Position numbers and translations under genes: made by a program
In this document: positions 29,391-55,526 of the stretch, in pieces
How positions within the stretch are numbered: the first letter of the stretch is position 1
Layout of the letters: each line of letters opens with the position of its first letter
The notes under the pieces: generated by a model
Told to the model about the DNA's origin: nothing
The model's database searches: none
What the model saw: the letters and a program-made list of their open reading frames with translations, nothing else
Assembly (NCBI GenBank): GCA_041497675.1
Contig: JBGQGY010000002.1
Span: 14,731-78,730 of the forward strand
DNA: 64,000 nucleotides
Direction: 5' to 3'
Source of the DNA: a bacterium
GTDB taxonomy: Bacteria; Sysuimicrobiota; Sysuimicrobiia; Sysuimicrobiales; Humicultoraceae

Positions 29391-29391
29391 C

Positions 29392-31933: not shown

Positions 31934-31959
31934 TGGCATGCTCTCGCGACACTCGGTGG

Positions 31960-33853: not shown

Positions 33854-33856
33854 CCG

Positions 33857-35032: not shown

Positions 35033-35044
35033 ACCGAAACTCGG

Positions 35045-36250: not shown

Positions 36251-38023
36251 TCACTTCTGAACCCGGAAATTCCCCATAAAGAGGGCGTCGAGCCCGCTGC
36301 GAAGGAAGGTATCAATCGCATGACCAGGCTCGGTCACAATCGGCTCGCCCCGCAGGTTGAAAGACGTGTTCAGAACGACCGGCACGCCCGTCGCCTGGCC
36401 GAACTTCCTGAGGATCTCATAATATCGGAGATTCCACTCCGGGCGCACGGTCTGCAGCCGGCCTGTCCCCATGTGGCTGACCGCCGGGATCCGGTCAGCG
36501 TGGTCTTGACGTATCGGGAGTACCAGGAGCATGAACCGCGAAGGATACTGCCGCGTCGCGTCATAGGTGAAATACTCTGCGGCACGTTCCTCGAGGATCG
36601 CCGGGGCGAATGGTCGAAATGGCTCCCGGAACTTGATCTTGCTGTTCACGATGTTCTTCATCTCGGCGCGGCGCGGATCGGCCAGGATGCTGCGGTTTCC
36701 GAGGGCCCGGGGTCCCCACTCAAACCGCCCCTGGAACCAGCCAATCACCCGGCCGGCGACGAGATCGTCGACCGCGGAGTCTATGAGGCGGTCGTCGTCC
36801 TCCAGCAGCTGATAGCGGAGCCCGGTTCGCTCGAGCGCCTCGCGGATGTGGTCCGGTCCGTACGACGACCCCCAGTAAGCGTGCTCCATGGTGAACTCGC
36901 GGGGTTTCCCGAGGAGCACGTGATACGCGTACAGAGCGGCTCCGAGCGCCCCGCCGGAGTCACCTGCCGCCGGTTGGATAAACACCTCGTCAAACGGCCC
37001 CTCCTGTACGATGCGCCCGTTCGCCACGCTGTTGAGTGCGACGCCGCCGGCCAGACAGAGCTTCTTCAACCCCGTCTTTTCATGCGCCTGCCGGACCATT
37101 CGCAGGGTAATGTCTTCGCTCATTTTCTGGACGCTGGCCGCGACGTCTGCGTAGTACTGGTTCTGACGCGACACCTCGCTGTCGGCCGACACGTCGGGGT
37201 CGGTTACCGACGTTGCAAACTCCGCCTTGGGGTCGCGCGGCGGACCGAACAGTTCTTCAAACTTCTCGTTAAATGTCCGGTCGACCGAGTGATGGAAACA
37301 GAAGTATCGCATGTCGAGCCAGAACGAACCGTCATCCTCAACACGAATGACCTTCGAGACCTTGTCCAGGTAGCGGGGCTGACCGTACGGCGCCATGCCC
37401 ATGACCTTGTACTCGCCGTCATTGACCTCGAAGCCCAAGAACGCGGTAAACGCAGAATACAACAGGCCCAACGAATGCGGGAAACGCAGCTCGCTGATCG
37501 TCCGCAGTTCGTTCCGAGCCCCGTTTGCCCATGCCGCCCGCCCGTGACCGATCGTGGCGGTGGCCCATTCACCCACGCCGTCAAACGTCACCGTCGCGGC
37601 TTCATCGAACGGCGAGCAAAAGAACGCACTCGCAGCGTGCGATTGGTGGTGATCGACAAACAGGATCTTGTCGGACGGAGTCTTCAAGTGGTCCTGAATC
37701 CTCCGCTTGATCCACAGCTTATCCTTGAACCAACTGATCATCGACTCGCGAAACACGGCCGCGGAGCGTGGAAATGTGGCCATGGCCGTCATCAGAATCC
37801 GGTCGAACTTCACAAAGGGTTTCTCGTAGAAGACCACGTAGTCCAGCTCCCCGCTCTCGATACCAGCCTGCTCGAGACAAAAGTGAATCGCGTGGAGGGG
37901 AAAGCCGTAGTCGTGCTTCTTTCGCGAGAAACGCTCCTCTTCAGCCGCCGCCACCAGCTGGCCAGCTCGAAGCAAGACTGCCGCGGCGTCGTGATAAAAG
38001 CACGAAATCCCCAGAATGTGCAT
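36251..38023 (-). CDS. O-carbamoyltransferase (NodU/CmcH/TobZ family)
   Basis: A 590-aa protein with the N-terminal ILGISCFYHDAAAVL and HHQSHAASAF motifs and the C-terminal YrdC-like/Kae1-like fold typical of this family. Its ATG overlaps the upstream stop by 1 nt (TAATG). Confidence 0.9.
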   Translation of the reverse strand: MHILGISCFYHDAAAVLLRAGQLVAAAEEERFSRKKHDYGFPLHAIHFCLEQAGIESGELDYVVFYEKPFVKFDRILMTAMATFPRSAAVFRESMISWFKDKLWIKRRIQDHLKTPSDKILFVDHHQSHAASAFFCSPFDEAATVTFDGVGEWATATIGHGRAAWANGARNELRTISELRFPHSLGLLYSAFTAFLGFEVNDGEYKVMGMAPYGQPRYLDKVSKVIRVEDDGSFWLDMRYFCFHHSVDRTFNEKFEELFGPPRDPKAEFATSVTDPDVSADSEVSRQNQYYADVAASVQKMSEDITLRMVRQAHEKTGLKKLCLAGGVALNSVANGRIVQEGPFDEVFIQPAAGDSGGALGAALYAYHVLLGKPREFTMEHAYWGSSYGPDHIREALERTGLRYQLLEDDDRLIDSAVDDLVAGRVIGWFQGRFEWGPRALGNRSILADPRRAEMKNIVNSKIKFREPFRPFAPAILEERAAEYFTYDATRQYPSRFMLLVLPIRQDHADRIPAVSHMGTGRLQTVRPEWNLRYYEILRKFGQATGVPVVLNTSFNLRGEPIVTEPGHAIDTFLRSGLDALFMGNFRVQK

Positions 38024-38334
38024 TAGAACTGCCTCCTGGAGGCTTCCAGACTATCCTCATGCGCCGGTTTGGCGACCCAGGTCGACGGTCGAGTCGGAGG
38101 CTTCAGGCCCAACGGGTCGCGCAGCAACCTGACAACAATGGCCATCGGGCCCAAGACGACGAAGTACACGACCGTCAAGATCACGCGGGCTTGAAAGTCA
38201 CCGATCCGTTGCGCCAGGACCTTCCATTTCGCCCAGAGAGTGCCAAGCATCTCGATCCCTCTCGTCCGGGCCGGCCGCGGACTGTCGGCCGGATCCACGG
38301 AAACCGCTGGTTTTCCCACGCGTGCGTCATCCAC
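38023..38334 (-). CDS. Small membrane protein translationally coupled to the carbamoyltransferase (SxtK/DUF5989-like)
   Basis: A 103-aa protein with one or two TM helices (VILTVVYFVVLGPMAIVV). It sits directly upstream of the carbamoyltransferase with a 1-nt overlap. Confidence 0.5.
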   Translation of the reverse strand: MDDARVGKPAVSVDPADSPRPARTRGIEMLGTLWAKWKVLAQRIGDFQARVILTVVYFVVLGPMAIVVRLLRDPLGLKPPTRPSTWVAKPAHEDSLEASRRQF

Positions 38335-38337
38335 CAG

Positions 38338-39912
38338 TCACACCCCAGAGGCCTTGTCGTTCTTCCGCTGTGAAAACGCCAGTGTATGAAACGGGAGCAA
38401 CTTGCCTGATGCCGTGGGCACCGGCTCGTGTCGAACGACCTTAATGGTCTCGGCCTGCCGCCACATCGGCGGAGCCGGGCGGCCTCGGGCGGAGGGGCTG
38501 CGCAGTTCCTGGACAAACCGCGCCAACAGTTGACGTTCGTCCACTGTGCCGACCGCAGGGCTCACCACGAGATGCAATCGGGTCAAATGCCCCTCGTCTT
38601 CGACCTCCAGCAGCTGGTAGTCTATGCTCCGCCCGCCGAATTCTCGCGGTAGCACTTCCTCAAGGATCCGCACACATTCTGTGCCCAAAACCGTCACGCC
38701 TTCGCCTGTCAATTTTGAGAAGCTCCTGATCCCGGACAGGTGGGTGTGGAAACCGAGCTCATCCCACAGACACCCGCACCGCCGGACGCTGATCCGACCG
38801 AAATCATCCGAATCCAGGTTGAGCAGAATCATCGGGCTTGTTGCAAGCAACGTGGTGATCATGAATCCTTCTACCGATTCGCCGTCAGATTGAATCCGCA
38901 GGTCGGGAATGAGCGCGAAGCTGTCCGCGATGAAGTGCACGTCGTCTACGTCGTTCGGTTGGCCACAAGCGCCTCCGATCGCCCCAATCTCGGTGATGTT
39001 ATACCGGACGCCTACGCGCGCCCCGGTGCGATTGATCTCGGCATGCTTCCCCGGCGTGAGCGGCTCACCGCCGACGACGAAGGCAATACGCTCGAGGTCC
39101 TCACGCTTCTGCGCTGCGAGCCCTGCGAGCCTGGTGGCCCCACTCGGGCTCGTCACGACCGTGCACCCGCCGTGGCGCGCGCGCGCCTGTACCACCGCCT
39201 CATAGACGCCGGCGGCTCCTGTGAGTGGCACGTGCTCGATGAACGGCAGACGGAGGCCATGGGTGACGCCGACGGCCTGACCAAATCGGTACATCAATTG
39301 GTGCAGCCGCGGCGCCCTCACGATGGTCAGGTCGGTCATGCTGAACCACCGCAACGTCGCGCGGTGCATATGCGCAAGGGTCAGCCACCACAAGAAGCCC
39401 GCTTCCCTCGGCATCCAGATAATGGCCGGCCACCGGCCGCCCCCAATCGCTTCGACAGTCAAACACCAGGTGGGGGCGCGTTGATCGGCAAGATAGGTGA
39501 ACGTGGCCGGGACCCGGTCCCCCTGGCTCCGCGTCCCACCCGTGCGTGTTTCAAACGTCGGGAGAATCCCTGGGTTGTCCGTGCTCACGTCATTCCAGTC
39601 CAGTTGCCGCGCTCCCCGCTGGATCGGTTTCCGCTCTTTGAACTCGCTGTGGCTCAGGTAGACTCCCGAATCGCGCAGCGACACCAGGGTGGCGTCAAGA
39701 CCATTCTTCCGTACCGCATCCTCAAGACTGTCGGGCGTCCAGCCCGCCCAGGTCAGTAGATGATAGTACGGGCTCCGAGAATTCTGCCAAATCGTCTCGC
39801 GCACCACCTGGAGGAACAGCTGATCCCGCATGGTGATGCGGCGGCGAAGGAGCGCTCGGGCGGTTTCGGGCGTGCACGGTCGGCGCATCAGCCCCGCGAG
39901 GCCCTGGGCCAT
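38338..39912 (-). CDS. CapK/PaaK-like adenylate-forming enzyme (phenylacetate-CoA ligase / F390-synthetase family)
   Basis: It carries the P-loop-like adenylation motif FETRTGGTRSQ and is a paralog of 52707..54335. The start is uncertain: the track ORF has an Arg/Ser-rich N-terminal extension that looks like read-through, so it is trimmed to M at about 39912. Confidence 0.6.
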   Translation of the reverse strand: MAQGLAGLMRRPCTPETARALLRRRITMRDQLFLQVVRETIWQNSRSPYYHLLTWAGWTPDSLEDAVRKNGLDATLVSLRDSGVYLSHSEFKERKPIQRGARQLDWNDVSTDNPGILPTFETRTGGTRSQGDRVPATFTYLADQRAPTWCLTVEAIGGGRWPAIIWMPREAGFLWWLTLAHMHRATLRWFSMTDLTIVRAPRLHQLMYRFGQAVGVTHGLRLPFIEHVPLTGAAGVYEAVVQARARHGGCTVVTSPSGATRLAGLAAQKREDLERIAFVVGGEPLTPGKHAEINRTGARVGVRYNITEIGAIGGACGQPNDVDDVHFIADSFALIPDLRIQSDGESVEGFMITTLLATSPMILLNLDSDDFGRISVRRCGCLWDELGFHTHLSGIRSFSKLTGEGVTVLGTECVRILEEVLPREFGGRSIDYQLLEVEDEGHLTRLHLVVSPAVGTVDERQLLARFVQELRSPSARGRPAPPMWRQAETIKVVRHEPVPTASGKLLPFHTLAFSQRKNDKASGV

Positions 39913-39952
39913 CTGTACCGCCTGTCTGAAATCAGACGTCAGCGACACAACG

Positions 39953-41167
39953 CTATCCTTCAGCAGCCTGGTCTGGGCTACTGGGAGCCTCGTGCGGAGT
40001 CCGGCCAAGCCACTTGCGGCGAAGTCCTGATATCGCGACCCCGGCCCAGCGCCGGGCGGCCACGACCGCCACGACGCGCGGCCGGCGCCTCCAGACGACC
40101 AACGCCTTGTCACGACGCAGGGCGGCGGCCCACCGCTGTTGCTTGTACGCCTCCCCACCGCGCAGGAAGTCGAACTCCGTAGCACCTTCGGCGATCGCTT
40201 CCTGGATCGCATGCCCCAACAAAAGCGTGCTGACGCCAAAGCGGGACCAGCTCGGATCGAATCCGGTCTGCAAATCTACCACTCGACCCCCCAGGCTCAG
40301 ACAGTACTCGGCCGCCACGTATCGGTCCCCCACACGCATGAGGTACAAGCGCAGCCAGCCGCGCTCCGCGGCCCGCTCCAGGAATACCCGGTGAAAAGCG
40401 AGTGATCGCCGGGTCGTAAATGCGCTGCGGTCTCCCGCGACCTGCCGGCGTTCATCATGGAGCCGAAGCAACACATCCCACGCATGTGCCAGTTCTTCTG
40501 TCCGTTGCACCCGCTCGACGACCACCTCACCGTGCTCCCGCAGGCGCCGCCACCGGCGCCCCAAGTCCTTCCGAGCATCCGAGCGCAGCGTGCGTAGGAA
40601 ATCCTCCCACGATCCCGGAAGCGAAATGTACGGGCAAATGTCGGCCGTCCTCGATACGCTCGCAAGCCCTCGGCCGACGGCGACAACAGTGGTTTCCAAC
40701 CACTGCGCGGTCTCGTCTTCAAGTCTTGGGAACTCCAGAACGTCCCACCGGGGATCTGACAGCAACCACTCCGCGACCGCACTACGCACCTCTGCCTCGG
40801 CACCGCGGCGTACCAGCACGGCCAAATGATCAGCGCCGACACCGACCCCCATGAAACGCATCGTGCGCACCGCGAGCGGTCCGCGGGCCGACGTGTCACA
40901 GAGCGGCGCAAGACCTACCAACTTGCCATCGGTCTCCCGCCGCAACAGCAACACCCTAGGCCTCGTCCCCCTGGGGCTGAACTCTTTGAGCCATATCGTC
41001 ATCCATTCCCATGACAGGAACACGCTGGGGCGCGCCGTGTCCAGCAACAAATCTGTCCACTCCTCGCGGAGCCCGACCACCTTTTCGAGCTCGGTGACGA
41101 CAGCGACAGTGAGCCCATCCACTCGCGCCACCTCGCGTCTGTCAAGCACCGCCGCCACGGCCGTCAT
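39953..41167 (-). CDS. FemAB-like / BioF2-like acyltransferase (GNAT-fold, Acetyltransf_6)
   Basis: It has a conserved core (RPSVFLSWEWMTIWLKEF...KLVGLAPLC). The start is trimmed to MTAVAAV at about 41167, which overlaps the upstream stop ATGA-style. Confidence 0.6.
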   Translation of the reverse strand: MTAVAAVLDRREVARVDGLTVAVVTELEKVVGLREEWTDLLLDTARPSVFLSWEWMTIWLKEFSPRGTRPRVLLLRRETDGKLVGLAPLCDTSARGPLAVRTMRFMGVGVGADHLAVLVRRGAEAEVRSAVAEWLLSDPRWDVLEFPRLEDETAQWLETTVVAVGRGLASVSRTADICPYISLPGSWEDFLRTLRSDARKDLGRRWRRLREHGEVVVERVQRTEELAHAWDVLLRLHDERRQVAGDRSAFTTRRSLAFHRVFLERAAERGWLRLYLMRVGDRYVAAEYCLSLGGRVVDLQTGFDPSWSRFGVSTLLLGHAIQEAIAEGATEFDFLRGGEAYKQQRWAAALRRDKALVVWRRRPRVVAVVAARRWAGVAISGLRRKWLGRTPHEAPSSPDQAAEG

Positions 41168-42504
41168 GCGCGGGAAATTTTGGGCCAAGTAGTGCGCGAG
41201 CCAAGATAGGCGATCCACATGAAGACATATGGAAAGATCTGCACGCGCTGACGGGCGATGATCCCGAAGTTGGTGACTGCCGAAAAGATGTAGATGAACA
41301 TGAGAGCGTAGAGCACCGATAGCAGCAGGAAACTGTTGCGCGGCGATCCCGAGATTGCGGCGATCACACTCCGGCGACGATACACGATGAGGCTCAAAAG
41401 GGCCAAGCTTTCGAGCGCCGTCACCATCGCGTTCATGTTGTGCGCCTCCCACGGGAACGGCCGAAACAGGACAGTCGGGATCAAGATAGCCAGCCCGAGG
41501 GGACTCGTGGTGTCGATCGGCGTGAACGCTGATCCGCCGTGCTCTCCTTCGCCGAGGATGTGTCGCTGCTGTCCGGTGTATCCCTGCCGCTCGCTGATGA
41601 AACCCTGCACTTCCTGCGCGTCCAACCCCTCCAGGCCCACGACCCGGCTCGCGACTACGGCGATCCCAACCGCGAATACCGTAACCAAGATGAGCCCAAC
41701 GACCTTGACGAACGGCGCCAAGCTCCCCTGCCTCACCGGACGAACAACGAGCGACATCATCAGGGCCACGCCAAAGATGGCGGCGAGATGGGCCCTAATA
41801 GCCAGCATGGCTCCGATCCCCAGCAACAGACCCACGACGCTCCCGATGTCAAACCGTCTCAGTGACCGCGCCACCCCATAGGCCGCGGTCCCTCCTGCCA
41901 GCATCATCACGGCATCCTTGCCCAGGCTGCTGGTCCAGAGCAGCAGAGACGGGAACAGCAACACGAGGATCATGTAGAGCCGGTGGTTACCCTGCGGGAA
42001 CGCCGTCACGAACGCCTTGTAGAAGAGCAGCATCCCGATCAGGCCAAGCCAGGCCCAGATATACGACACTCCCACAAGCGTCGGGCCGGTGAGCAGATAC
42101 GCGAAAGCGGTGAGAAGGCGCACGGCGAAACTCCCGGTGAACCGCCCGGTTAACGGCCATTCGCCCGCCGCCAGCGAGTACGACATCTCCTCCCCCGCCG
42201 CGCTATACACGTAGGCATCCGCCAGCAGGCCAGTAGCGAAACGGAAGTGGACGGCAAATATCTTAAGAGCAAAACTTGCCATGAGCAGCCAAAACAGCAG
42301 ATCCGCATCTGCATCATTTCGTGCGGCGATGCGGAAGATCACAATAGAAAGCAAGACGAGGACCACCAGGACGACGCTCATCCGCATAGTCGCGATGTCG
42401 TTACCACCGACAAAGATGCCGGCAACCCACGCCACACTCGCGAGCAGCGGGATCGCGACGATCAAACGCCGCAGCTGACTTCGATCTATCGCCAGGGTGC
42501 TCAT
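41164..42504 (-). CDS. Polytopic membrane protein, probably a Wzy-like repeat-unit polymerase or O-antigen ligase-like protein
   Basis: A 446-aa protein with about 10-12 TM helices and a large periplasmic loop near EVQGFISERQGYTGQQRHILGEGEHGGSAF. Confidence 0.5.
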   Translation of the reverse strand: MSTLAIDRSQLRRLIVAIPLLASVAWVAGIFVGGNDIATMRMSVVLVVLVLLSIVIFRIAARNDADADLLFWLLMASFALKIFAVHFRFATGLLADAYVYSAAGEEMSYSLAAGEWPLTGRFTGSFAVRLLTAFAYLLTGPTLVGVSYIWAWLGLIGMLLFYKAFVTAFPQGNHRLYMILVLLFPSLLLWTSSLGKDAVMMLAGGTAAYGVARSLRRFDIGSVVGLLLGIGAMLAIRAHLAAIFGVALMMSLVVRPVRQGSLAPFVKVVGLILVTVFAVGIAVVASRVVGLEGLDAQEVQGFISERQGYTGQQRHILGEGEHGGSAFTPIDTTSPLGLAILIPTVLFRPFPWEAHNMNAMVTALESLALLSLIVYRRRSVIAAISGSPRNSFLLLSVLYALMFIYIFSAVTNFGIIARQRVQIFPYVFMWIAYLGSRTTWPKISRA

Positions 42505-43740: not shown

Positions 43741-45663
43741 CTATGTCTGGTTGCCGGGCTTGACCTGCGTCCGACTGTCCTGTTCTGGCGGCAGCGAAAA
43801 ACTGGTCCCGTCGGAGGACAACCGCCGGAGAATGGCCCGGATCCCTATATCGTCCCGGTGCGCAACGAGGTGCTCGAGCTGCTGAAGCGCCAGCCGAACG
43901 ATGACTTCATCAGGTTCGCGCTCATCGACCACCTCAAAGACTCCGGGGAATGGCGACGGCCGCATGGCTTCGCTCGGGGCGGCGAGCTCTTCTTCCAGTT
44001 TTTCACCCGGTCTGATCCCCGTGTAGACTATTGGGATATCCTTGTCCGGCTCGAGCCCCGACAGCCGGATGACTTCGGTTGCCAGGTCCGCAATCCGAAC
44101 GGGCACCCCCATGTCGAGGACGTACAAGGCCTGTTGACGCTCGGACATCGACACTTGAAGGATGAGCAGGACCGCCTCCGTGGGGCTCATGAAGTAGCGC
44201 GTCATATCCGGATGGGTCAGTGTCACCGGCCCGCCATTGCGAATCTGCTCTTGAATCAGCGGCACCAGGCTTCCTCGGCTACCGAGGACGTTCCCAAACC
44301 TCACCGTGAGGAAGCGCGTGCGCCCGCGGCGACTCAGCATATGCACGATCGTCTCGGCGACGCGCTTCGTCGCGCCCATGACGCTCGTCGGCTGTACCGC
44401 CTTGTCCGTCGACACGAGGACAAAGGTCTCGGCCCCATGCCTGACTGCGCCCTCCGCCAACAGCAACGTCCCCAAGACGTTCGTCTTTACGGCCTCGTCG
44501 ACGTCCCGCTCCATCAACGGCACGTGTTTGTACGCCGCCGCATGATAGATGACCCGCGGTTTCACCGAACCGAGGACCCAATCCATCTTGCCTGCATCTC
44601 GGACGTCCGCGATGAGCGTCTGCAACTGCACGTCTGGAACCAGTCGCCTGACGCTCTCTTCCAGTTCAAAGAGCCCGGTCTCGTTCATGTCGAGCGCGAC
44701 AATCTCGCAGCGGGACAAGCGCGCCACTTGGCGGACCAGCTCGCTGCCAATCGACCCTGCTGCGCCCGTAATAAGCACCCGGGTCCCCTGGAGTCGCTCG
44801 GCGATGGTGTCCGTCGCGATGGTGACCTGCGACCTGCCGAGGAGGTCTGTCACCTCGACCTGCCGGATGTCTCTGAGCGTTGCCGTCCCCGTCAGCAGGG
44901 CATTCACGCCTGGGAGAATGCGCATCCGCCTGATACCGGCTCGACGTACACACTCGACGATCCCCCGAACATCCTCGGCCGGGGCGGACGGGATCGCAAT
45001 GAGCACTTCGTCCACCCTATGTTGCGTCACGATATCCCCCATCGCGGTGCGCCCGCCCAGCACGGGGAGACCCCGGACATACGTTCCCCATCTGCCCGGA
45101 TCATCATCGACGAACCCGACGGGTCGGTAGAATCGGTGTGGTGACTCTTCCATCGCCTGGACGATGCGCATACCTGCGGCGCCGGCGCCGACGACGAGGA
45201 TGCGCGTCCCCTGGGTCGCCCCACGCTCCCTGAACCCATCCAGCTGTCTCTGCAAAAGCCGCCTGCTGATTCGGAGCAGACCCACACCAAAGAGCGTCAA
45301 CAGGAAGTCCATCGCCAAAACCGACCGCGGAAATCCCCAAAACGGCCGAAGCGACCTGAGAAACACGAGGCTCGCCGCAATCGACAGGCTCGACGTACCG
45401 GCGGCTTTGATCGTATTCACCAGCTCGGGGAGACCGACTGATCGCCATGACACCTTATAGAGTCGGAAGGCCCAATGCCAAACCGCCTTAATAGGGAGAA
45501 AGAGGAGCAACAGCACCGGGAAGTAGTTCCAATAGAGCGCAGGAATGGCCCCATCGAATCGGATTAGGAATGCCAGGACGAGCGCAGCGACCCACACGAT
45601 AAGATCGCCGGCCACGAAGATCGCGACCCGACGTACACCTGGGCGTAAGCGCATGCGCCTCAA
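43741..45663 (-). CDS. Membrane-anchored NDP-sugar 4,6-dehydratase/epimerase (CapD/PglF/WbpM family)
   Basis: It has four N-terminal TM helices and two Rossmann regions (VLVVGAGAAG, VLITGAAGSIGSEL), plus the SDR catalytic motifs STDKAV and YxxxK. Confidence 0.9.
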   Translation of the reverse strand: MRRMRLRPGVRRVAIFVAGDLIVWVAALVLAFLIRFDGAIPALYWNYFPVLLLLFLPIKAVWHWAFRLYKVSWRSVGLPELVNTIKAAGTSSLSIAASLVFLRSLRPFWGFPRSVLAMDFLLTLFGVGLLRISRRLLQRQLDGFRERGATQGTRILVVGAGAAGMRIVQAMEESPHRFYRPVGFVDDDPGRWGTYVRGLPVLGGRTAMGDIVTQHRVDEVLIAIPSAPAEDVRGIVECVRRAGIRRMRILPGVNALLTGTATLRDIRQVEVTDLLGRSQVTIATDTIAERLQGTRVLITGAAGSIGSELVRQVARLSRCEIVALDMNETGLFELEESVRRLVPDVQLQTLIADVRDAGKMDWVLGSVKPRVIYHAAAYKHVPLMERDVDEAVKTNVLGTLLLAEGAVRHGAETFVLVSTDKAVQPTSVMGATKRVAETIVHMLSRRGRTRFLTVRFGNVLGSRGSLVPLIQEQIRNGGPVTLTHPDMTRYFMSPTEAVLLILQVSMSERQQALYVLDMGVPVRIADLATEVIRLSGLEPDKDIPIVYTGIRPGEKLEEELAAPSEAMRPSPFPGVFEVVDEREPDEVIVRLALQQLEHLVAHRDDIGIRAILRRLSSDGTSFSLPPEQDSRTQVKPGNQT

Positions 45664-45717: not shown

Positions 45718-46731
45718 CTACCTCGAGTGCGTCGAACGATAGAATCCCGAGAGCCCAAACTGCAGCCGGCTCATCGTGTGCCGAACGTTCACCGTGTGAC
45801 GCAGGAGTGAGTATCGGTTGCCCACCGGCAGAGTGTTTCGACCCGGCATCGTGCTGAACGCCGTAAGAAATCTGTGCTCTCTCAGCATCCCTGCGGCGCG
45901 CTCATCGTAGTGGCCAAACGGATAGGCGAAGACTCCCGGCGCCGATCCCAGCTCACGCTGCAGATCCACCTGTGCCTCCTCGACCTCTGCGCGAATCTCG
46001 TCTGTCGTCAACGCCGGCAGCGACGCGTGCGAGCAACCATGGGAGGCCACTGTCACACCCTCGTGCGTCAGTTGGCGCAGCTCGCTCCACGACAAGACCG
46101 GCGGCGGGCCACTAGACGTCGTGCCCAACGCCGCGCTCAGCTCGGCGATCTGACCTTCAATCACTTCAGGTCGCAGGGGGCGCAAGTGACGCACCAACCG
46201 CCGGACGAGCTGCCGGCGAGTGCCCGGGTGTCGAAGATCGACGGCTCCGATGCCCGGGATCTCCATCTTCGCGAAGGCCGCCTGTGCAATATGTTGCCAG
46301 ACCTGGTCCCACCAGAAACGGCGACCGCTGCCGGGAAACCGCGTGGGCAGGAACAGGACGACCGGAACTCTCTGCGCGCTCAGGATCGGCCATGCGTCGG
46401 TCAAGAAATCCCGGTATCCATCGTCGAAGGTGACGAGCACCGCCTTCTGGGGTAGCGATCGCCCGGTCTCAAGGCTCGCCTGGAGTTCGGGCCATCCGAT
46501 GGGTGCGTAGTGGCGCGCCAGGACGTTCATGTGTTCGGCGAACCCCCTCGGTGTGGCGCTGATCACGTTGGGATCGCCATGAAGAGGGTCGTCTTTGGGA
46601 TCGCAAATTCGGTGATACCCTAAGATACGGAGCACGCTCGCTTGATTGTCCAAGGCCCGGACCAGCCTAAGCAATCCAAGCCGCCGCAGCACGATGTCGG
46701 CGGCTCCTTCGACGACAGCCTGCACGGGCAT
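45718..46731 (-). CDS. Polysaccharide deacetylase (CE4, NodB-homology domain)
   Basis: It has the NodB motifs (LVTFDDGYRDF; HGCSHASL). The start is trimmed to M at about 46731, next to the upstream stop. Confidence 0.75.
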   Translation of the reverse strand: MPVQAVVEGAADIVLRRLGLLRLVRALDNQASVLRILGYHRICDPKDDPLHGDPNVISATPRGFAEHMNVLARHYAPIGWPELQASLETGRSLPQKAVLVTFDDGYRDFLTDAWPILSAQRVPVVLFLPTRFPGSGRRFWWDQVWQHIAQAAFAKMEIPGIGAVDLRHPGTRRQLVRRLVRHLRPLRPEVIEGQIAELSAALGTTSSGPPPVLSWSELRQLTHEGVTVASHGCSHASLPALTTDEIRAEVEEAQVDLQRELGSAPGVFAYPFGHYDERAAGMLREHRFLTAFSTMPGRNTLPVGNRYSLLRHTVNVRHTMSRLQFGLSGFYRSTHSR

Positions 46732-46733
46732 GC

Positions 46734-47915
46734 TCAGTGAGCTCGCGCGTGTTGAGGAATGAGTGTTCCGTACAAACCTTCCAACGCCTTGACGCACCGA
46801 CGCACATCATACTGTCGCCGGGTCCACTCCATCGCCTCCGCGCCAAGGCGGCCAGCAAGCGCTCTGTCCTTCGCGAGCCGGAGGATGGCCTCGGTCAACG
46901 CTTCTGGCGATTGACTCGGCACGAGAAGCGCTTTCGTCCCGTTGTCGGTGACCTCGCGAAGAACATCGATATCGCTGGCGATGCACGGCTTGCCCGAGCC
47001 CATCGCCTCCATGAGCGACACACCAAATCCTTCAAACAGCGATGGAAAAACAAAGATATCTGCAAACGCCAGCAGCGCAGGAACATCGGCTCGATCGCCG
47101 AGCAACCACACGCAGGACTGGAGGCCATGAGCGCGGATGAGGGCCTCGAGGTCCCCACGGAGCCACCCCTCCCCCGCAATGAGCAGCCTGGCCTGCGGGA
47201 ACACCTGATGGACCCGCGCCATCGCCTTGATCAGGTGATGTTGCCCCTTCTGGGGGACCAGGCGAGCAACGTTCAGCAGCACGGGATAGGTATTGGTGCA
47301 GTCGAGTGCCGCCCTCAGCGCTGCAACCGACGCTGCGGGTGGCACCGTTCCATTCTCAAACGCAAACCCCCGAGGAATCACTTGGATCTTCTTCTCTGGA
47401 ATGGCCAGACGGCGCACGGCCGATCGTTTCACCGTCTCCGTGAGGGCAACGAACATCGCACCCCACCGCGACGTCATCGTGTCCACGCCCTGCACGAGTG
47501 CGACTTTCCACCAACTCAGATGCGGATTGTCCAACTTCCACTCGGGCTCGTACGCGGTATTGACGAGCGACGTCACGACAGGCACGCGGCACAGACGCCC
47601 CACGGTCCTGCCGACCACGCCCGGGCGATAGAGGACCGCATGAATCAGATCAGGTGCCACGTGACGGACAAGACTCCGCAGGCGCGCGACCGCCCGAATC
47701 AAATCCCAGTTACGCTCCACCCGGAGCACATGGATCGTGATACCCAGTGTTTGTAGTGACGTCGCGAGTCGGCCGGCTTCTGTCAGGACGCAGATCTCGT
47801 GGTGAAAGTACTCGCGATCAGACCGCGAGAGAAACGCCGCCAACTGCTGCTCCGCCCCGCCCGTATCGAGGTCCTCAAGGACGTGCAAGATCCGCGCCTG
47901 CCTGGCTTGTGACAT
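46734..47915 (-). CDS. Family 4 glycosyltransferase (GT-B, Glycos_transf_1)
   Basis: It has an N-terminal ILHVLEDLDTGGAE region and the C-terminal GT4 motif (FVFPSLFEGFGVSLMEAMGSGKPCIASD). The start is trimmed to MSQARQARILHVL. Confidence 0.85.
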   Translation of the reverse strand: MSQARQARILHVLEDLDTGGAEQQLAAFLSRSDREYFHHEICVLTEAGRLATSLQTLGITIHVLRVERNWDLIRAVARLRSLVRHVAPDLIHAVLYRPGVVGRTVGRLCRVPVVTSLVNTAYEPEWKLDNPHLSWWKVALVQGVDTMTSRWGAMFVALTETVKRSAVRRLAIPEKKIQVIPRGFAFENGTVPPAASVAALRAALDCTNTYPVLLNVARLVPQKGQHHLIKAMARVHQVFPQARLLIAGEGWLRGDLEALIRAHGLQSCVWLLGDRADVPALLAFADIFVFPSLFEGFGVSLMEAMGSGKPCIASDIDVLREVTDNGTKALLVPSQSPEALTEAILRLAKDRALAGRLGAEAMEWTRRQYDVRRCVKALEGLYGTLIPQHARAH

Positions 47916-47925: not shown

Positions 47926-48666
47926 CTACTCTTTGGGGTCACTGAGATCTAAAGGTGGTTGAGCGACAAGTCTGCGAGTGGTCCCCGACGTGCAGATGTA
48001 GACCCGTGCGGCGGCGCCGGTCTTCCTGACCTGGATGCTTGGGCCCAGCCACTCGGTTGCTTCCAGGACGTGTCTGCCAAAGCCATCGCGATTGTCCACG
48101 TGCACGACATACACTCCGAAACGGCCGACAAAACGAACACATGAGAGATCGAGTCCGGCAACGAAGCCCAGGCGAGAAAACAACGTCTTCGACGCCTTGT
48201 TGTGCCTGCTCACGCGGCAGTACACGCCCTGAAACCCTCGCCGCTTCGCTTCCTCCAGCAACGCCACGACGACGGCCGACCCGACCAGGGACCCACGCGC
48301 CTCTGCAACGGTGTACAAATCGTACAGCACGCACTCAGCATCGCCGATGCGTACAGCGATCCCAACGTCATCAAGCCGCCATTTGCCAAAGCCCAGCCAG
48401 CCAAACCCGACGATTCGCTCACCGGCGTTCGCCAGGATGCAGACTTCGCCGTCGGCCAAACGCTCTGCGAATCGCTGGCCGCCCTGGACGGTCAGCAGTC
48501 GACGAGCCTCGGCGCCGGTCGGGACGTGACTCAGGCGTGTCAACGACACCGCACTTCTCGGCACGATGGTCTGAATCTGCTGGCTCAGATCTCGTCTGAA
48601 CAGGGTCCCCGCCCATCGCCTGACAACCCAGCGTCGGATCAGCGCCGCCGGCGCGTGCAAGATCAT
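47926..48666 (-). CDS. GNAT-family N-acetyltransferase
   Basis: It has a GNAT fold core (RRGFQGVYCRVSRHNKASKTLFSRLGF). Its start overlaps the upstream flippase stop (ATGA). Confidence 0.55.
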   Translation of the reverse strand: MILHAPAALIRRWVVRRWAGTLFRRDLSQQIQTIVPRSAVSLTRLSHVPTGAEARRLLTVQGGQRFAERLADGEVCILANAGERIVGFGWLGFGKWRLDDVGIAVRIGDAECVLYDLYTVAEARGSLVGSAVVVALLEEAKRRGFQGVYCRVSRHNKASKTLFSRLGFVAGLDLSCVRFVGRFGVYVVHVDNRDGFGRHVLEATEWLGPSIQVRKTGAAARVYICTSGTTRRLVAQPPLDLSDPKE

Positions 48667-50222
48667 CCGTCACCATGCTCGATCGCCGGGGAATTGACAG
48701 GCTGCGTCTTCGCCGTGATGGGGTCCGCGGTCATCTGTCCGCCATCACGCTGGGCCTCGCGCAGCAGAGATAGCAACTCGAGTACCACGTCGCGTCTGAC
48801 GAACCATATCGTCGCCGCGTAGACGATGACGCCAATGGCGACCAGCGCCACAAGCGTCGGGATCCTTGGGCCAACCGTCTTGACCAGAATCTGCTCTGCG
48901 ACGGCGACAACGACCACCATCACGGCGCAGCCGGTGAGGGCCGGCCACAAGGCGTCGACCAACTCCCGTATCGATATTCCCGTCACCCGGGCGACATACC
49001 GGTAGAGAATCGGCGTCAGCAACACCGTCGCGACGAGGTACCCTGCCGCGACACCGATGATCTGCCATCGCAACCCAATCACAAACGCCGGAACATAGAC
49101 AAAGAGGGAAATCGTCGTCCAGCGAAGTTGCAACCGCGAATGACCGGCTGCCTGGAGCGCGCTCGGCCCCAGGGCCAGCATCAAAGAGATGAACCCCGCA
49201 ACCGCCAGGATGCTCAGGACGGGCGAGGCGGGCAGCCACCCGGCACCAAATAGGGCTTTCACCTGCAGGCGAGCGACCAGCGCCATGCCGAGGACCGCCG
49301 GGAGCGCCACCAATGCGACATACCGGGTGGCCGTGAGGAAGGCCCTCTTGAACTGGTCGGCCGCGCCCTGGAGTCGAGAGAAGGCCGACGTCATGACCTG
49401 GTTCCCAAGAACGATGAGGTCCGTGACAGGGGCCATGAAGAGCGTGTAGGCCATCGAGTAGTAGCCAAGCGCGCTGGCACCCAAGTAGCGCCCGATCAAC
49501 AGGTTATCCGAATATCTGATAAAGAACGTGAGCAGCCGCGCCACCACCAGCGGCATCCCGAAGGCCCAGAGTTCGAGAAGCTTCGACCGCGAAAAGTAGA
49601 ATCGCGGCCGCCAGCCTGCCGAAGAATACAGGAGAAGCGTCGTCATCCCCGTGACCGTCAGCATCTGGCCTGCCAGACTCCACACGCCCATGCCTGACCA
49701 GGCCATCAGCACCCCCACGAGACCACCGATCAGGGTCGCGATGAAGGTCCGGACCACCAGTCTTCTGTACTCCAGCACCCGCGAGATGACCGCGATCTGG
49801 ATGGCCGACCCTGCGGTCAGCACGATTCCCAGGGACAGGATCAACGCCACCGTTCCGACCGCCGGTTCGCGCGTGAAAGCGCTGAACAACCGCGAACCCG
49901 CCGCCGCGACCACCACCAGCAGGACCGCCACGCCCATTTGCGCCCAGAAGGCAGAGGACAGATGACCTTCGTCGATGTCCTTACGCTGGATGATCGCCGA
50001 GCCCAGCCCCATTTGGCTGAACGATTGCAAGAAACCAGTAAAAACCACGGCAAGCGCCACGAGTCCAAAGTCACTCGGTGACAGCAGCCGCACCAAAATA
50101 AGGGTAAAGATCTGGTCGACGATCCGGGTCGACACCCGCTCGCCGCTGACCCAGAACACACCCCGGATCGCCGCGCTTCTGATCCGGCGTTCTAGGGTCT
50201 CTTGGGTCTCTGGTGCAGCCAT
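48663..50222 (-). CDS. Wzx-type oligosaccharide flippase, second copy
   Basis: It has the same family N-terminus (IVDQIFTLILVRLLSPSDFGLVALA...GSAIIQRKDIDEGHLSSAFWA). The first 165 or so codons of the track ORF are Arg/Pro-rich read-through, so the start is trimmed to ATG 50222 (MAAPETQE). Confidence 0.75.
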   Translation of the reverse strand: MAAPETQETLERRIRSAAIRGVFWVSGERVSTRIVDQIFTLILVRLLSPSDFGLVALAVVFTGFLQSFSQMGLGSAIIQRKDIDEGHLSSAFWAQMGVAVLLVVVAAAGSRLFSAFTREPAVGTVALILSLGIVLTAGSAIQIAVISRVLEYRRLVVRTFIATLIGGLVGVLMAWSGMGVWSLAGQMLTVTGMTTLLLYSSAGWRPRFYFSRSKLLELWAFGMPLVVARLLTFFIRYSDNLLIGRYLGASALGYYSMAYTLFMAPVTDLIVLGNQVMTSAFSRLQGAADQFKRAFLTATRYVALVALPAVLGMALVARLQVKALFGAGWLPASPVLSILAVAGFISLMLALGPSALQAAGHSRLQLRWTTISLFVYVPAFVIGLRWQIIGVAAGYLVATVLLTPILYRYVARVTGISIRELVDALWPALTGCAVMVVVVAVAEQILVKTVGPRIPTLVALVAIGVIVYAATIWFVRRDVVLELLSLLREAQRDGGQMTADPITAKTQPVNSPAIEHGDG

Positions 50223-50239
50223 CGTGGTCCTCGAACTCC

Positions 50240-51424
50240 TCAAACCGCCGCGCTGGCCTTGAGCCCATCCTTGAGCGTCTGGGCAATCGTGGAGATGTCG
50301 TCCCTTTGCAGACCGTTGAAGAACGGCAACGCGACCACGCGACGGCTCGCGTCTTCGGCTACAGGGAAGTTCCCCTTCTGATACAGCCCGAACTTCTGGA
50401 AATACGGCTGAAGGTGGAGCACTGGGAAGTAGGCCCTGCTCGCAACGCCCCGGCTGGCAAGAAAGTGCATCAGGCCGTCGCGATCGACCGCAGCGGCAAC
50501 CCGCACCACATAGACGAACCAGTTGACCCGCGCCCACGGCTGCGCAGCCGGCAGGGTCAGCTCCGCGATGTCCCCGAGCAACGCCGCATATAGCGCCACC
50601 ACCTGGCTGCGCCTGGCTACGAGCGTCTCGAACCGCTTCATCTGCGCCACACCAAGGGCCGCAGAGAGCTCGTCCATTCGATAGTTGAACCCGAGGACAT
50701 CGTGCCGTAGCCACTCGGCCCCCGCTGCGCGGCCCTGGTTGCGGGCGCTACGGCAGTAGGCGGCGATCTCATCGTCATCGGTCACGATCATGCCGCCTTC
50801 ACCCGTCGTGATCTGTTTGTTCGGATAGAAGGCGAAGATCGCCACCTCGGCTAACGCCCCCGACTTGAGCCACTGCCCGTGGACGGCCGAGTAGTACTCG
50901 GAGCCGAAAGCCTCAGCGGTGTCGTCCAAGAACCTCACGCCGTACCGATTGGCCAGCGCGCGAAATTCGTCCATCTTCACCGGATGGCCGAAGACGTCTA
51001 CGGGGAGAATCCCTGCGAGCGGCCGGCCGGTCGACCGGCGGATCATCTGGCCGGACACGGGACGGTATTCACGTTCGATGAACGCGCCGACCCTCTCGGG
51101 ATCCATATTCAAGGTCGCCGGATCAACGTCGACGAACACCGGGTGCGCCCGCTCCATGAACAGAATGTTGCTCGTCGCCGCGAAGGTAAACGGTGTCGTG
51201 ATGACCTCGACGCCTTCCGTAAACCCCAGCGCCCGTCCGGCCAGGTGGAGACCGGCAGTCCCGCTGCTGACGGCAATGGCATGCCGCCGGCCCAGATAGG
51301 TCGCCATCATCCCTTCAAACTCATCGACCTTGGGACCCAGGCTCAGCCACGGCGTTTTTAGGACGCCGAGCACTTCCTGGATCTCAACATCGGTAATATC
51401 CGGCCGTGATAGAGGCAGACTCAT
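50240..51424 (-). CDS. PLP-dependent sugar aminotransferase (DegT/DnrJ/EryC1/StrS family, PglE-like)
   Basis: It has the DegT-family motifs (AIAVSSGTAGLHLA and SFYPNKQITTGEGGMIVTDD). Start ATG 51424 overlaps the upstream stop (ATGA). Confidence 0.9.
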   Translation of the reverse strand: MSLPLSRPDITDVEIQEVLGVLKTPWLSLGPKVDEFEGMMATYLGRRHAIAVSSGTAGLHLAGRALGFTEGVEVITTPFTFAATSNILFMERAHPVFVDVDPATLNMDPERVGAFIEREYRPVSGQMIRRSTGRPLAGILPVDVFGHPVKMDEFRALANRYGVRFLDDTAEAFGSEYYSAVHGQWLKSGALAEVAIFAFYPNKQITTGEGGMIVTDDDEIAAYCRSARNQGRAAGAEWLRHDVLGFNYRMDELSAALGVAQMKRFETLVARRSQVVALYAALLGDIAELTLPAAQPWARVNWFVYVVRVAAAVDRDGLMHFLASRGVASRAYFPVLHLQPYFQKFGLYQKGNFPVAEDASRRVVALPFFNGLQRDDISTIAQTLKDGLKASAAV

Positions 51425-52113
51425 GGCTCTCTCCTTTGCGGTGCCGTCCACGCGACAGGGGCAGGCCCGCCGATTCGGCGACCCGGCCAATCAGGCACCA
51501 GTCGCGCAAAGACCATCCGACCGAGTTTCGGCGCACACCCCGCGAGCGGCGTAGCAACCAGAACCCCAAGGTCGGTCAACCACGTACGACGCCGGACATA
51601 CGCCAGTTCGAGCGCCACCTTCTTCGGCAGCACGATCTCGAAATAGGCGGTCTCGGGATCCGCCGCTCGGCCCAAGAGCTTTTCTTCGTGCACGAAGACC
51701 AGTTGCGCGATGCCCGTCATGCCGGGGCGGGCCGCGTAGACCTGTCGCGCTTGATCGGGCGGAATGGCCGCGACCTCGTTCGGTGTCAGGGGGCGCGGTC
51801 CGACCAGGCTCATCTCGCCGCTCACCACGTTCAGCAATTGCGGCAGTTCATCGAGCTTGGTAGCGCGCAGCACCCGGCCGATCGGCGTGATGCGCCGGTC
51901 ACCCCGTATCGTGATCGTCCCGCCGGCCGCCGCGTCCTCGATCATTGTTTGAAACTTCAGGATCTCAAACGGCCGCAGCGCCCGGCCGATCCGTGTCTGC
52001 CGGAAGAACACGCGGCGTGTCGTCAGCCAGTTGAGCGCAGCGATGACACCAAACACCGGGGCTGTCAGGATCAGGAAGGTGCACGCGACCAGCACGTCGG
52101 TCAGACGTCGCAT
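51421..52113 (-). CDS. Small monotopic phosphoglycosyl transferase (bacterial sugar transferase, PglC/WecP-like initiating enzyme)
   Basis: A 230-aa protein with an N-terminal re-entrant helix and the conserved motifs DELPQL and SLVGPRP. Confidence 0.85.
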   Translation of the reverse strand: MRRLTDVLVACTFLILTAPVFGVIAALNWLTTRRVFFRQTRIGRALRPFEILKFQTMIEDAAAGGTITIRGDRRITPIGRVLRATKLDELPQLLNVVSGEMSLVGPRPLTPNEVAAIPPDQARQVYAARPGMTGIAQLVFVHEEKLLGRAADPETAYFEIVLPKKVALELAYVRRRTWLTDLGVLVATPLAGCAPKLGRMVFARLVPDWPGRRIGGPAPVAWTAPQRREP

Positions 52114-52123: not shown

Positions 52124-52750
52124 TCACGACGGCACGCGCGATTCCGCCGGTAACCGGTTCCCCAGCGTGATCACGTAGACAGACGCGCTCTCGCCCTGGT
52201 GGATCTCAGCACGATGCAGCAATGTGAACCCCGAGCGTTCATACACACCCGCTGCCGCGACGTTGTCGACGGCGGTAGTGACGCGCACCCGCTCCACCCC
52301 ACGCTGGGAAAACTCCTCAAGCACTGCGCGCACCAGCCCGTCGGCGGCGCCGGCGCCGCGGGCCTCCGGGTCCAACGCGATCGACAGCAGTTCGGCTTCT
52401 GGAAGCGCTCCCGCCGCCGCGTACCGGGACGTCTCAAAGAGACGGCGCAGCCCGCCTCCGACGATCTTCTTGAACACGATCCGCGCAGCCAACGACCAGT
52501 TCCGCAACACGAACGTCCGGTAGAACCGCCGCCAGTGCACGACGGCGGTGCAGTACCCGACCGGCCGACCATCCCGCTCGGCGATAAACGCAAAGCCCGA
52601 GGGCGAATCCAGCAGCGTCCGGTAGAACGTCTCAACGAACCCCGGACCCATGCCCGACAGCAGCCCCCACGGGATCTGCGCCAGGTGGAGCGCCGCAATC
52701 GCGCCGCTATCGGCCGCTGACGCTTTCCTGATTGAGACCGATACGGCCAT
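52124..52750 (-). CDS. GNAT-family N-acetyltransferase
   Basis: The acetyl-CoA binding region reads ...GAGAADGLVRAVLEEF.. The start is trimmed to MAVSVSIR. Confidence 0.6.
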   Translation of the reverse strand: MAVSVSIRKASAADSGAIAALHLAQIPWGLLSGMGPGFVETFYRTLLDSPSGFAFIAERDGRPVGYCTAVVHWRRFYRTFVLRNWSLAARIVFKKIVGGGLRRLFETSRYAAAGALPEAELLSIALDPEARGAGAADGLVRAVLEEFSQRGVERVRVTTAVDNVAAAGVYERSGFTLLHRAEIHQGESASVYVITLGNRLPAESRVPS

Positions 52751-55522: not shown

Positions 55523-55526
55523 CCGC

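Follow-up and report, generated by a model that had tools for sequence, protein, structure and literature searches.

The stretch of DNA analysed here, called the window below, is 64,000 nt long (contig JBGQGY010000002.1 of GenBank assembly GCA_041497675.1, positions 14,731 to 78,730 of the forward strand); it comes from an uncultured bacterium of the Sysuimicrobiota (family Humicultoraceae) and carries genes for assembly of a surface glycan. Among them are genes for two paralogous adenylate-forming ligases, referred to as LigA and LigB, and a gene for a tandem-GNAT transferase, GNAT6, next to the LigA gene (Table 1). Judged by sequence profiles and structural models, the two ligases define a previously undescribed, unnamed family in the PaaK clade of the ANL superfamily. 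Their most likely role is attachment of small acids or amino acids to the surface sugar coat. The minus strand carries all genes from ~17 to 59 kb of the window, with G+C content of roughly 61-67%. Exact copies of LigA, LigB and GNAT6 are present in public metagenome collections, where the names given are only 'hypothetical protein' or 'CelD/BcsL family acetyltransferase'.

Table 1. Glycan genes around the two ligases in the window (L numbers denote loci fetched from other assemblies; GT, glycosyltransferase)
Feature	Position	Strand	Evidence
LigA, 524 aa, predicted PaaK-clade adenylate-forming ligase, unnamed family, A-type orthogroup	38338..39912	(-)	
GNAT6, 404 aa, predicted tandem-GNAT FemX-fold transferase, PF13480, CelD/BcsL family	39953..41167	(-)	
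LigB, 542 aa, predicted paralogous PaaK-clade ligase, B-type orthogroup	52707..54335	(-)	
Single-domain GNAT (Acetyltransf_1), 208 aa, overlaps 3' end of LigB	52124..52750	(-)	Gene call and Pfam at identical locus L004/L005; phmmer self-hit
Polysaccharide deacetylase (Polysacc_deac_1), candidate source of free sugar amine	45718..46797	(-)	Pfam E 1e-19
DegT/PglE-like sugar aminotransferase	50240..51490	(-)	PF01041 E 1.6e-107
PglF/CapD-like membrane-anchored nucleotide-sugar 4,6-dehydratase	43741..45663	(-)	PF02719 E 2e-98
PglC-like phosphoglycosyl transferase (Bac_transf)	51421..52113	(-)	PF02397 E 1.9e-49
GT4 directly upstream of LigB	54332..55561	(-)	Pfam; same order in L004/L005
Wzx-type flippase; true start probably near 50222	48663..50714	(-)	PF13440 E 5e-76; 519-aa call in L004
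Protein of 446 aa without Pfam match, upstream of GNAT6	41164..42504	(-)	Homologs upstream of GNAT6 in L009, L010, L011
SxtJ-like 103-aa protein and NodU-like carbamoyltransferase, directly downstream of LigA	36251..38334	(-)	Pfam, NCBIfam

In the order of transcription the genes begin with thiolase-like/DUF35, coenzyme A (CoA)-transferase III, hotdog, CoA-transferase III, MaoC, GT4, LigB and the 208-aa GNAT. The PglC-like, DegT, Wzx, GNAT, GT4, deacetylase, PglF-like and DUF218 genes follow, then genes for a 227-aa protein, the 446-aa protein, GNAT6, LigA, the SxtJ-like protein and the NodU-like carbamoyltransferase; two GDSL, two PMT_2-type GT-C, GT2, methyltransferase and more genes come after. 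Overlaps of 4 bp were seen for GT4/LigB, PglC-like/DegT, Wzx/GNAT and the 446-aa gene/GNAT6, and LigB overlaps the 208-aa GNAT gene by 44 bp; next to either ligase or GNAT6 no gap longer than the 40-bp spacer between GNAT6 and LigA was noted. Such short spacings and overlaps are consistent with a long, translationally coupled operon. LigA had been described as lying immediately upstream of the transferase gene. The two genes do adjoin; on the minus strand, however, the GNAT gene comes first in transcription.

The pathway genes of the window predict amino sugars, by a 4-amino-4,6-dideoxyhexose route and as deacetylated N-acetylhexosamine. The 446-aa protein may be a membrane protein that acts as a Wzy-like polymerase, as its hydrophobic sequence and its position suggest. 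The carbamoyltransferase next to LigA implies O-carbamoylation of the glycan; the pairing of SxtJ-like and NodU-like genes is one known from saxitoxin clusters. An Arg-rich open reading frame of 224 aa at 52171-52845(-) was rejected as an out-of-frame artefact of high G+C content, the real gene there being the GNAT gene at 52124-52750.

Alignment of LigA and LigB by BLASTP gave 288/512 identities (56%) and 72% positives with 0 gaps. The preliminary description of the window had called the two reading frames (38338..39912 and 52707..54335) paralogs, co-linear over >450 aa, and this relationship is borne out. The adenylation motifs that it had named, RTGGTTGQ (LigB 137-144) and RTGGTRSQ (LigA 123-130), are present as well, and they belong to a conserved glycine-rich loop rather than being a chance string. 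In the family alignment (A1, 42 members, residues numbered as in LigB) positions 138-146 read [TS]-G-[GA]-[TS]-[RT]-[SG]-x-[GA]-[ST]: residue 138 is Thr in 36 members and Ser in 6, G139 is kept in 39/42, residue 140 is Gly in 35 and Ala in 7, and residue 141 is Thr in 36 and Ser in 6. All family motifs were found in LigA. The loop sits between two strands of the AlphaFold2 (AF2) model; as it is outside the region aligned to chains in the PDB, we assigned it as motif A3 by position and conservation.

The profile of the family matched only PaaK-like chains in the PDB, namely ClxA (E 2.5e-8), BT_0428 (1.3e-6), NatL2 (3e-6) and AjiA1 (1e-4). The AF2 model of the ligase, built on the 42-member alignment, reached pLDDT 87.3 and pTM 0.86; its top Foldseek matches were BT_0428 (9e-16), PaaK1 (8e-15, TMt 0.65), PaaK2, NatL2 and ClxA, and further matches covered >100 other ANL chains, including acetyl-CoA synthetases and A domains of non-ribosomal peptide synthetases. 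In the crystal of ClxA, AMP is contacted by Y219 (adenine), T222 (phosphate) and D281 (ribose), plus a C-terminal Lys (PMC12519233). Residues Y219/T222/E223/D281 of ClxA align with Y318/T321/E322/D384 of LigB (profile alignment, numbering checked). Three of these, Y318, E322 and D384, are invariant in 42/42 members, and position 321 is Thr or Ser in 35/42; YxxTE corresponds to motif A5 and D384 to A7, the latter residue being aligned with D299 of NatL2 and with the 'rtrD' motif of BT_0428 too. Also invariant are G324, K414 in a hinge-like RSFSKLTGEG segment, and G517-K518 near the C terminus (P-x-T-x-x-G-K), which is located beyond any solved-chain alignment and in a part of the model with lower confidence.

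On the grounds of fold and active-site residues, both ligases are predicted to be adenylation-competent members of the PaaK clade. Assignment to GH3, LuxE or an unrelated fold was tried and rejected: no such Pfam matches were obtained and the first 50 Foldseek matches were all ANL proteins. The possibility raised earlier, of an unrelated family or a GH3 fold without adenylation residues, is ruled out by these PaaK-like profile and Foldseek matches and by the invariant AMP-binding residues.

LigA had no match in Pfam or NCBIfam. LigB remained below thresholds, with 16.9 bits for Pfam AMP-binding PF00501 (threshold 29.9) and 20.4 bits for NCBIfam PaaK (threshold 700). Models of PaaK were touched by just 6 of the 42 family members, at E 1e-5 or worse, and the F390-synthetase model had no match among family members even at E<=1. 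Membership in a PaaK, CapK or F390-synthetase equivalog was thus rejected, as the curated thresholds were missed widely, and we consider the ligases to be relatives of PaaK in a separate unnamed family. The term 'CapK/PaaK-like adenylating enzymes', used for the two proteins at first, holds for the clade (by profile, fold and invariant residues) but not for the curated PaaK and AMP-binding definitions.

All 42 members keep a Cys/His/Cys/Cys set, which in LigB is C330, H340, C393 and C395 (window about 53150-53350); its counterparts in the alignment are C231/H237/C290/C292 in ClxA and Cys/His residues in NatL2. These residues are possibly a structural metal site shared by this ligase clade; the ClxA paper mentions no metal (PMC12519233).

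Among 5.8 billion proteins we detected 417 relatives of the ligases; every source name shown was 'hypothetical protein', and a precomputed Pfam domain was available for only one of them (P0109). A HMMER scan of 1.84 billion representatives of 50%-identity clusters returned 1,188 clusters at E<=1e-30 and no more than 2,865 at E<=1e-3; this is a small family with sharp limits. When one genome per species was scanned, 464 stretches were found to encode a relative, and no ligase homolog was found in PLSDB plasmids. The A-type orthologs are 60-92% identical to LigA and only about 54% to LigB. Existence of distinct conserved orthogroups indicates that the LigA/LigB duplication is old and has been maintained.

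For analysis of gene neighbourhoods we used 79 retrieved loci (L007-L085), with L006 fetched separately. All 79 are from metagenome-assembled genomes (MAGs), assigned to Armatimonadota (Fervidifonticultor, CSP1-3), Dehalococcoidia, Deltaproteobacteria, Binatia, Acidobacteriota, Gemmatimonadota and other taxa. Two or three ligase copies are present in 11 of these loci.

Open reading frames of the 79 loci were clustered for neighbour counts and 125 immediate neighbours were scanned with Pfam. Gene calls and Pfam in ten independent contigs placed the ligase among genes for Bac_transf, DegT, PglF-like, GT2/GT4, deacetylase and Wzx/Wzy proteins, along with an Asn-synthase-type amidotransferase (AsnB), sulfotransferase and TPR genes; glycan-gene neighbourhoods of this kind recur across phyla. 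The most frequent neighbours were an ATP-binding cassette (ABC) ATPase (23 loci) and a solute-binding protein (SBP) of NMT1 type (20 loci, at a median distance of 4 bp), followed by GT4 (19), GT2 (17), TctA, polysaccharide deacetylase and ABC permease (12 loci each), FAD amine oxidase (11), TctC (9) and TAXI-type SBP (7). Profile searches revealed Wzx-like genes in 26/79 loci and deacetylases in 14/79; a deacetylase adjoins the ligase or GNAT6 in L006, L010, L011, L017 and L090. In total, glycan genes were present in 40 loci and transporter parts in 50, both in 24.

The 125 immediate neighbours contained NMT1 (15), NMT1_2 (11), NMT1_3 (6), TctC (6), SBP_bac_5 (2) and Acetyltransf_6 (2) domains; in most loci of the family the ligase has no acyltransferase as neighbour. 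An SBP gene (NMT1/SsuA-like, TctC or TAXI) lies within 300 bp of the ligase in 29/79 loci, in 25 of them directly downstream on the same strand (e.g. L060:11613-12668, L089:11659-12657 and L069:11801-12844), and genes for ABC ATPase and permease are usually next. With SBP genes accounting for a few percent of the genes in bacteria, this adjacency exceeds expectation several-fold. No SBP gene was seen near either ligase of the window. The family has ties with glycan clusters, with deacetylases and with solute importers, of which the importer link is unusual and consistent.

In locus L006 (L006:1-21614), an Armatimonadota-like contig, three ligase paralogs, four deacetylases, GNAT6, Bac_transf and DegT genes are interleaved with importer genes, i.e. 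genes for three NMT1 SBPs, an ABC ATPase and a permease. Such interleaving indicates that import and glycan tailoring are linked, not separate. Other arrangements were observed too. A cassette from Deltaproteobacteria-like MAGs (L003, L038, L060 and L090; e.g. L090:4701-14563) includes GT2, FAD amine oxidase, a small open reading frame, deacetylase and/or sulfotransferase, ligase, GT4 and a TPR protein; in L060 methyltransferase and phosphodiesterase genes come in addition. In L088 (L088:11653-20395), on a contig unrelated to the window, two CoA_transf_3 genes, ACAD, ECH and an NMT1 ABC importer are located beside the ligase. In two Acidobacteriota MAGs a gene for porphobilinogen synthase, hemB (453-460 bits; cutoff 297), is directly downstream of the ligase, as is an ALAD gene in a Pseudomonadota MAG (ALAD/hemB loci L044:11526-12527, L065:11536-12582 and L087:11616-12593).

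GNAT6 matches Pfam family PF13480 (Acetyltransf_6), which we take to be the BioF2-like domain of InterPro, over positions 2-143 of 143 with E 3.6e-32 (111.9 bits, cutoff 22). The same domain is carried by 91/91 detectable homologs, whose source names, where given, are 'CelD/BcsL family acetyltransferase'. Pfam FemAB_like stayed below threshold (16.7 bits vs 27), and searches with the GNAT6 sequence against the PDB gave no significant match and no Fem chain. The model of GNAT6 (pLDDT 92, pTM 0.89) has a complete tandem-GNAT, FemX-like fold. Its best Foldseek match is FemX of W. viridescens (E 5e-14, TMt 0.74, root mean square deviation 4.1 A), followed by S. aureus FemX and FemA, the peptide synthases Sba18/Sbb17 (structures solved with the amino-sugar compound streptothrisamine) and the aminoacyl-phosphatidylglycerol synthase domain of MprF. 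These best structural matches are all aminoacyl-tRNA-dependent transferases; identity to them is only 10-14% and, unlike FemX and FemA, GNAT6 belongs to PF13480, not FemAB. Residue K342 of GNAT6 is invariant, and Y341-K342 is (nearly) invariant among homologs; this pair may resemble F304-K305 of FemX, in which K305 is the catalytic Lys, and the donor of GNAT6 may be aminoacyl-tRNA or acyl-CoA. A weak NCBIfam match is BspF, a crotonyl transferase in the same Pfam family. The prediction of a FemAB/BioF2-like, GNAT-fold transferase agrees with the full-length PF13480 match, and the model supports its FemAB-like character at the level of fold.

Relatives of GNAT6 were found in 5/79 loci, all of an Armatimonadota-like clade, and in 4/5 within 300 bp of a ligase. 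Locus L009 repeats the order of the window exactly (446-aa protein, GNAT6, LigA, SxtJ, carbamoyltransferase), L014 has GNAT6 and LigA, L010 has two deacetylases, GNAT6 and two ligases, and L017 has deacetylase, LigA and GNAT6; in L011 a deacetylase and GNAT6 are followed by LigA 2.5 kb off. A deacetylase-GNAT6 pair occurs in L006 in the same cluster as its three ligases. Nine GNAT6 orthologs match a ligase homolog in longest-contig size (eight of the ligases are LigA-type and the ninth is P0056), which suggests that they share contigs. General coupling of the family to PF13480 GNATs was considered and rejected, with just 2/125 immediate neighbours and 5/79 loci. The GNAT6-ligase pairing is real but specific to the Armatimonadota-like clade.

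In the reading that we prefer, LigA and LigB are ATP-dependent ligases that tailor a Wzx-dependent surface glycan by direct amide ligation, with GNAT6 as partner; we give this reading a probability of about one half. First, a small carboxylic acid (amino, hydroxy or aryl acid) would react with ATP to form acyl-AMP, a step indicated by the conserved residues. Second, the acyl group would pass directly, without CoA, to a sugar amino group of the growing repeat unit and form an amide, as suggested by the genomic context and the nearest relatives. The acceptor could be a 4-amino group made by the PglF-like dehydratase and DegT, or a 2-amino group exposed by the polysaccharide deacetylase. The FemX-fold GNAT6 beside LigA would probably add or extend a second (amino)acyl unit, which LigA would cap or prime; the product would be, speculatively, an N-acyl-aminoacyl or dipeptidyl side chain. 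Many O-antigens are known to carry N-acyl-aminoacyl amides. LigB, for its part, would act on a second position or with a second acid.

Direct amide ligation is favoured because the cluster makes sugar amines while no uronic-acid route was found, and because deacetylases travel with the family, most members of which have no adjacent acyltransferase. It is favoured also because ClxA, NatL2, AjiA1 and BagE/FevW form the final amide or ester themselves, and because the PaaK-like VpsH is required for an amino-acid amide on a lipid-linked glycan. The aminoacyl or aryl-acyl decoration of a glycan proposed at the outset is supported, with a solid glycan context and VpsH as precedent, though we still infer the function. 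The substrate acid is not inferable from sequence, as was said from the beginning; prediction of a substrate from SBP subtype was tried and given up, since the subtypes (SsuA-like, TAXI, TctC, DppA-like and LivJ/UrtA-like) are too heterogeneous.

Several observations weigh against this reading. Neither the Pfam AMP-binding nor the NCBIfam PaaK threshold is reached by the ligases, alignment to solved relatives covers only residues about 200-410, and the loop and K518 are putative equivalents of motifs A3 and A10 by position and conservation, not by alignment. Of the 79 loci, 13 show neither glycan nor transporter context, and L089 consists of ligase, SBP, ATPase and permease genes only, without glycan genes. 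The joint role of LigA and GNAT6 is one that we purely infer. Finally, each ligase of the window adjoins a GNAT, and CoA-transferase and hydratase genes precede GT4-LigB, an arrangement that also fits a route via a CoA thioester.

Along such a two-step route LigA and LigB would be true CoA ligases in the manner of PaaK and would turn an unusual acid into acyl-CoA; the acyl group would then be handed to the sugar amine by the adjacent GNATs (PF13480 GNAT6 for LigA, the 208-aa Acetyltransf_1 protein for LigB). PaaK1/2 and BT_0428, which rank with the best fold matches, are indeed CoA ligases; a GNAT gene abuts each of the window ligases, and BspF, the weak NCBIfam match of GNAT6, is a crotonyl transferase. 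Two CoA_transf_3 genes, hotdog/MaoC hydratases and a thiolase/DUF35 pair are situated directly upstream of GT4-LigB, and the ligase of L088 also neighbours two CoA_transf_3 genes, ACAD and ECH. However, PF13480 occurs in only 2/125 immediate ligase neighbours, and CoA is used by none of the top structural matches of GNAT6, all of which depend on aminoacyl-tRNA. In addition, a GNAT1a homolog (L006, L017) and a ~205-aa Acetyltransf_1 protein (L088) follow GT4, not the ligase; given this position in relatives, the 208-aa-type GNAT is probably a PglD-like acetyltransferase of the core pathway. We regard the CoA route as unlikely.

VpsH offers the closest precedent. This PaaK-like protein of V. cholerae (described in 2026) is genetically required for the glycine amide of the VPS biofilm polysaccharide on a lipid-linked intermediate; although it hardly resembles characterised ligases, it was proposed to activate a carboxylate in an ATP-dependent manner (PMC13463779). 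In our literature search on PaaK-like and F390-synthetase proteins in polysaccharide clusters, the VpsH paper (PMC13463779) was the only one found. The window resembles this case in having a PaaK/CapK-like protein encoded inside a Wzx/Wzy-type glycan cluster, and by analogy LigA and LigB probably work like VpsH. It differs, when compared by description, in that VpsH deals with a uronic acid and glycine, whereas amino-sugar genes dominate the window and no uronic-acid pathway was found; it differs too in having two paralogs and a FemX-like partner.

The same precedent allows for the opposite polarity, with the carboxyl of a glycan uronic acid adenylated on the lipid-linked repeat unit and attacked by a free amine or amino acid to yield a uronamide. 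VpsH, the sole genetically assigned PaaK-like glycan enzyme, is required for glycine on GulNAcA in VPS, and the family-wide adjacency of SBPs of amino-acid, peptide and sulfonate types fits import of an amine partner. The cluster, though, encodes amine-generating enzymes instead. Pfam scanning of window genes (2.4-58.9 kb) revealed no UDP-sugar 6-dehydrogenase, and a Ugd probe of uncertain sensitivity had no match among all window open reading frames of >=80 aa and matched 1/90 fetched loci (L012). This polarity seems to us distinctly improbable for the window.

That the ligases serve salvage or catabolism, making a CoA ester from an imported organic acid for use in metabolism, and sit among glycan genes incidentally, we consider very doubtful. 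The 29/79 loci in which an SBP gene lies no more than 300 bp away (in 25 directly after the ligase in the same orientation), the L089 set of ligase, SBP, ATPase and permease, and the acyl-CoA metabolism genes near LigB and in L088 are what one would expect of such an enzyme. The LigB gene, however, shares 4 bp with GT4 and 44 bp with the GNAT gene downstream, and LigA is flanked by GNAT6 and the carbamoyltransferase module; association with glycan genes is seen again in other phyla, and L006 interleaves importer genes with three ligases, deacetylases, Bac_transf and DegT. An enzyme with no carboxylate activation at all, either a nucleotidyl transferase adenylylating a hydroxyl in the manner of F390 synthetase (which shares a COG with PaaK) or a dead scaffold, is hardly credible, as 42 diverse members all keep the AMP-binding residues and the C-terminal Lys and the F390-synthetase models gave no match even at E<=1, despite a glycine-rich loop that deviates from the canonical SSGTTGKP.

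Direct amide ligation, our preferred reading, can tentatively be extended to a scheme of import and ligation, which is possible but which we would not expect to hold: an SBP-dependent importer would bring in an exogenous acid or amine, and a dedicated PaaK-clade ligase would attach it directly to a surface glycan with amines exposed by deacetylases. For the Armatimonadota-like clade the scheme, held just as tentatively, would include duplicated ligases and a FemX-fold transferase that make short branches, peptide-like or N-acyl-aminoacyl, on a secondary polymer of the cell surface; such branching would constitute a route to glycan-peptide conjugates independent of Mur and ATP-grasp ligases. 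If true, import and ligation of this kind would be widespread in uncultured bacteria and would so far have escaped notice.

Other known systems share parts of this arrangement. The best fold matches of the ligases (Foldseek E 1e-14 to 1e-15), PaaK1/PaaK2 of Burkholderia cenocepacia and BT_0428 of Bacteroides, are phenylacetate-CoA ligases. Shared with them are an N-terminal SPxY helix motif, YxxTE, the ribose-binding Asp, a CxC motif and, putatively, the C-terminal Gly-Lys; identity is 14-16%, the window proteins are ~100 aa longer, and they are placed in glycan assembly, not in aromatic catabolism. ClxA, NatL2/AjiA1 and BagE/FevW are CoA-independent, amide- or ester-forming PaaK-like ligases of benzoxazole and bagremycin pathways, and the ClxA/NatL2/BagE clade shows that the final amide or ester can be made by the ligase itself. 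ClxA is the best sequence-profile match, its AMP-binding residues and Cys/His/Cys/Cys set being aligned with invariant window residues, and BagE/FevW are among weak NCBIfam matches of the family. These enzymes differ in acting on aminohydroxybenzoates in secondary metabolism; a dimer-swapped cap extension is described for them.

Deacetylation followed by acylation has precedents as well. In the NodB/NodA logic GlcNAc is deacetylated and the freed amine is N-acylated, with tailoring by sulfo-, methyl- and carbamoyl-transferases thereafter; NodA uses acyl-ACP (acyl carrier protein). The GT2/deacetylase/ligase/sulfotransferase/methyltransferase cassettes (L038, L060 and L090) and the NodU-like gene beside LigA echo this logic, by analogy and not by homology, since NodA is an unrelated acyltransferase. 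In the holdfast system of Caulobacter a deacetylase, HfsH, acts with HfsK, a FemX-like tandem GNAT proposed to re-acylate the freed amines; HfsK is regulated by c-di-GMP via its C-terminal tail, and a ligase partner is not described (PMC5362036). As an arrangement of genes, the deacetylase-GNAT logic of HfsH/HfsK is mirrored in L006, L010 and L011.

Many O-antigens and capsules bear amide-linked amino acids and unusual N-acyl groups, and little is known of the enzymes that install such groups; among these VpsH, defined by genetics only, is the first to be PaaK-like. A tailoring ligase in a glycan cluster will not surprise a specialist; it is the pattern of import and ligation, along with the missing annotation, that makes the family a worthwhile target. 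Added here are the definition and size of the family, support for adenylation at the level of residues, a FemX fold for GNAT6, the restriction of its pairing to one clade, the associations with deacetylases and importers, and VpsH and HfsK as precedents. Once defined, the chemistry of the ligases would give an annotation handle for thousands of 'hypothetical proteins' and a tailoring step for prediction of glycan structures, and the ligases are possibly new ATP-dependent amide-bond biocatalysts related to ClxA and NatL2.

Acyl metabolism is represented at two places in the window. Directly upstream of GT4-LigB, at 55527-61000(-), there are two family-III CoA-transferases, hotdog/MaoC hydratase subunits and a thiolase-like/DUF35 pair; these CoA-transferase and hydratase genes may be a supply route for an acyl group. 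A second, canonical acyl-activation module at 22969-26026(-) includes an acyl-CoA dehydrogenase (24881-26026), an AMP-binding enzyme (23289-25046; PF00501 E 3e-90) and an unannotated 88-aa, carrier-protein-like open reading frame (22969-23235) with motif VVDSMGLL; flanked by alpha/beta hydrolases and a second Wzx gene (21414-22937), it suggests ACP-borne acyl decoration as well.

Tandem paralog pairs were observed at 26980-36229 and 17398-19053(-), and GDSL, PMT_2-type GT-C, DUF6798, Wzx and ligase genes are each present twice; the locus may encode two related glycans or a duplicated tailoring set. A flavin-dependent halogenase-like gene at 19074-20387(-) (Trp_halogenase E 7e-29, FAD_binding_3) is located within the glycan super-cluster and adjoins genes for an alpha/beta hydrolase and DUF6798 membrane proteins.

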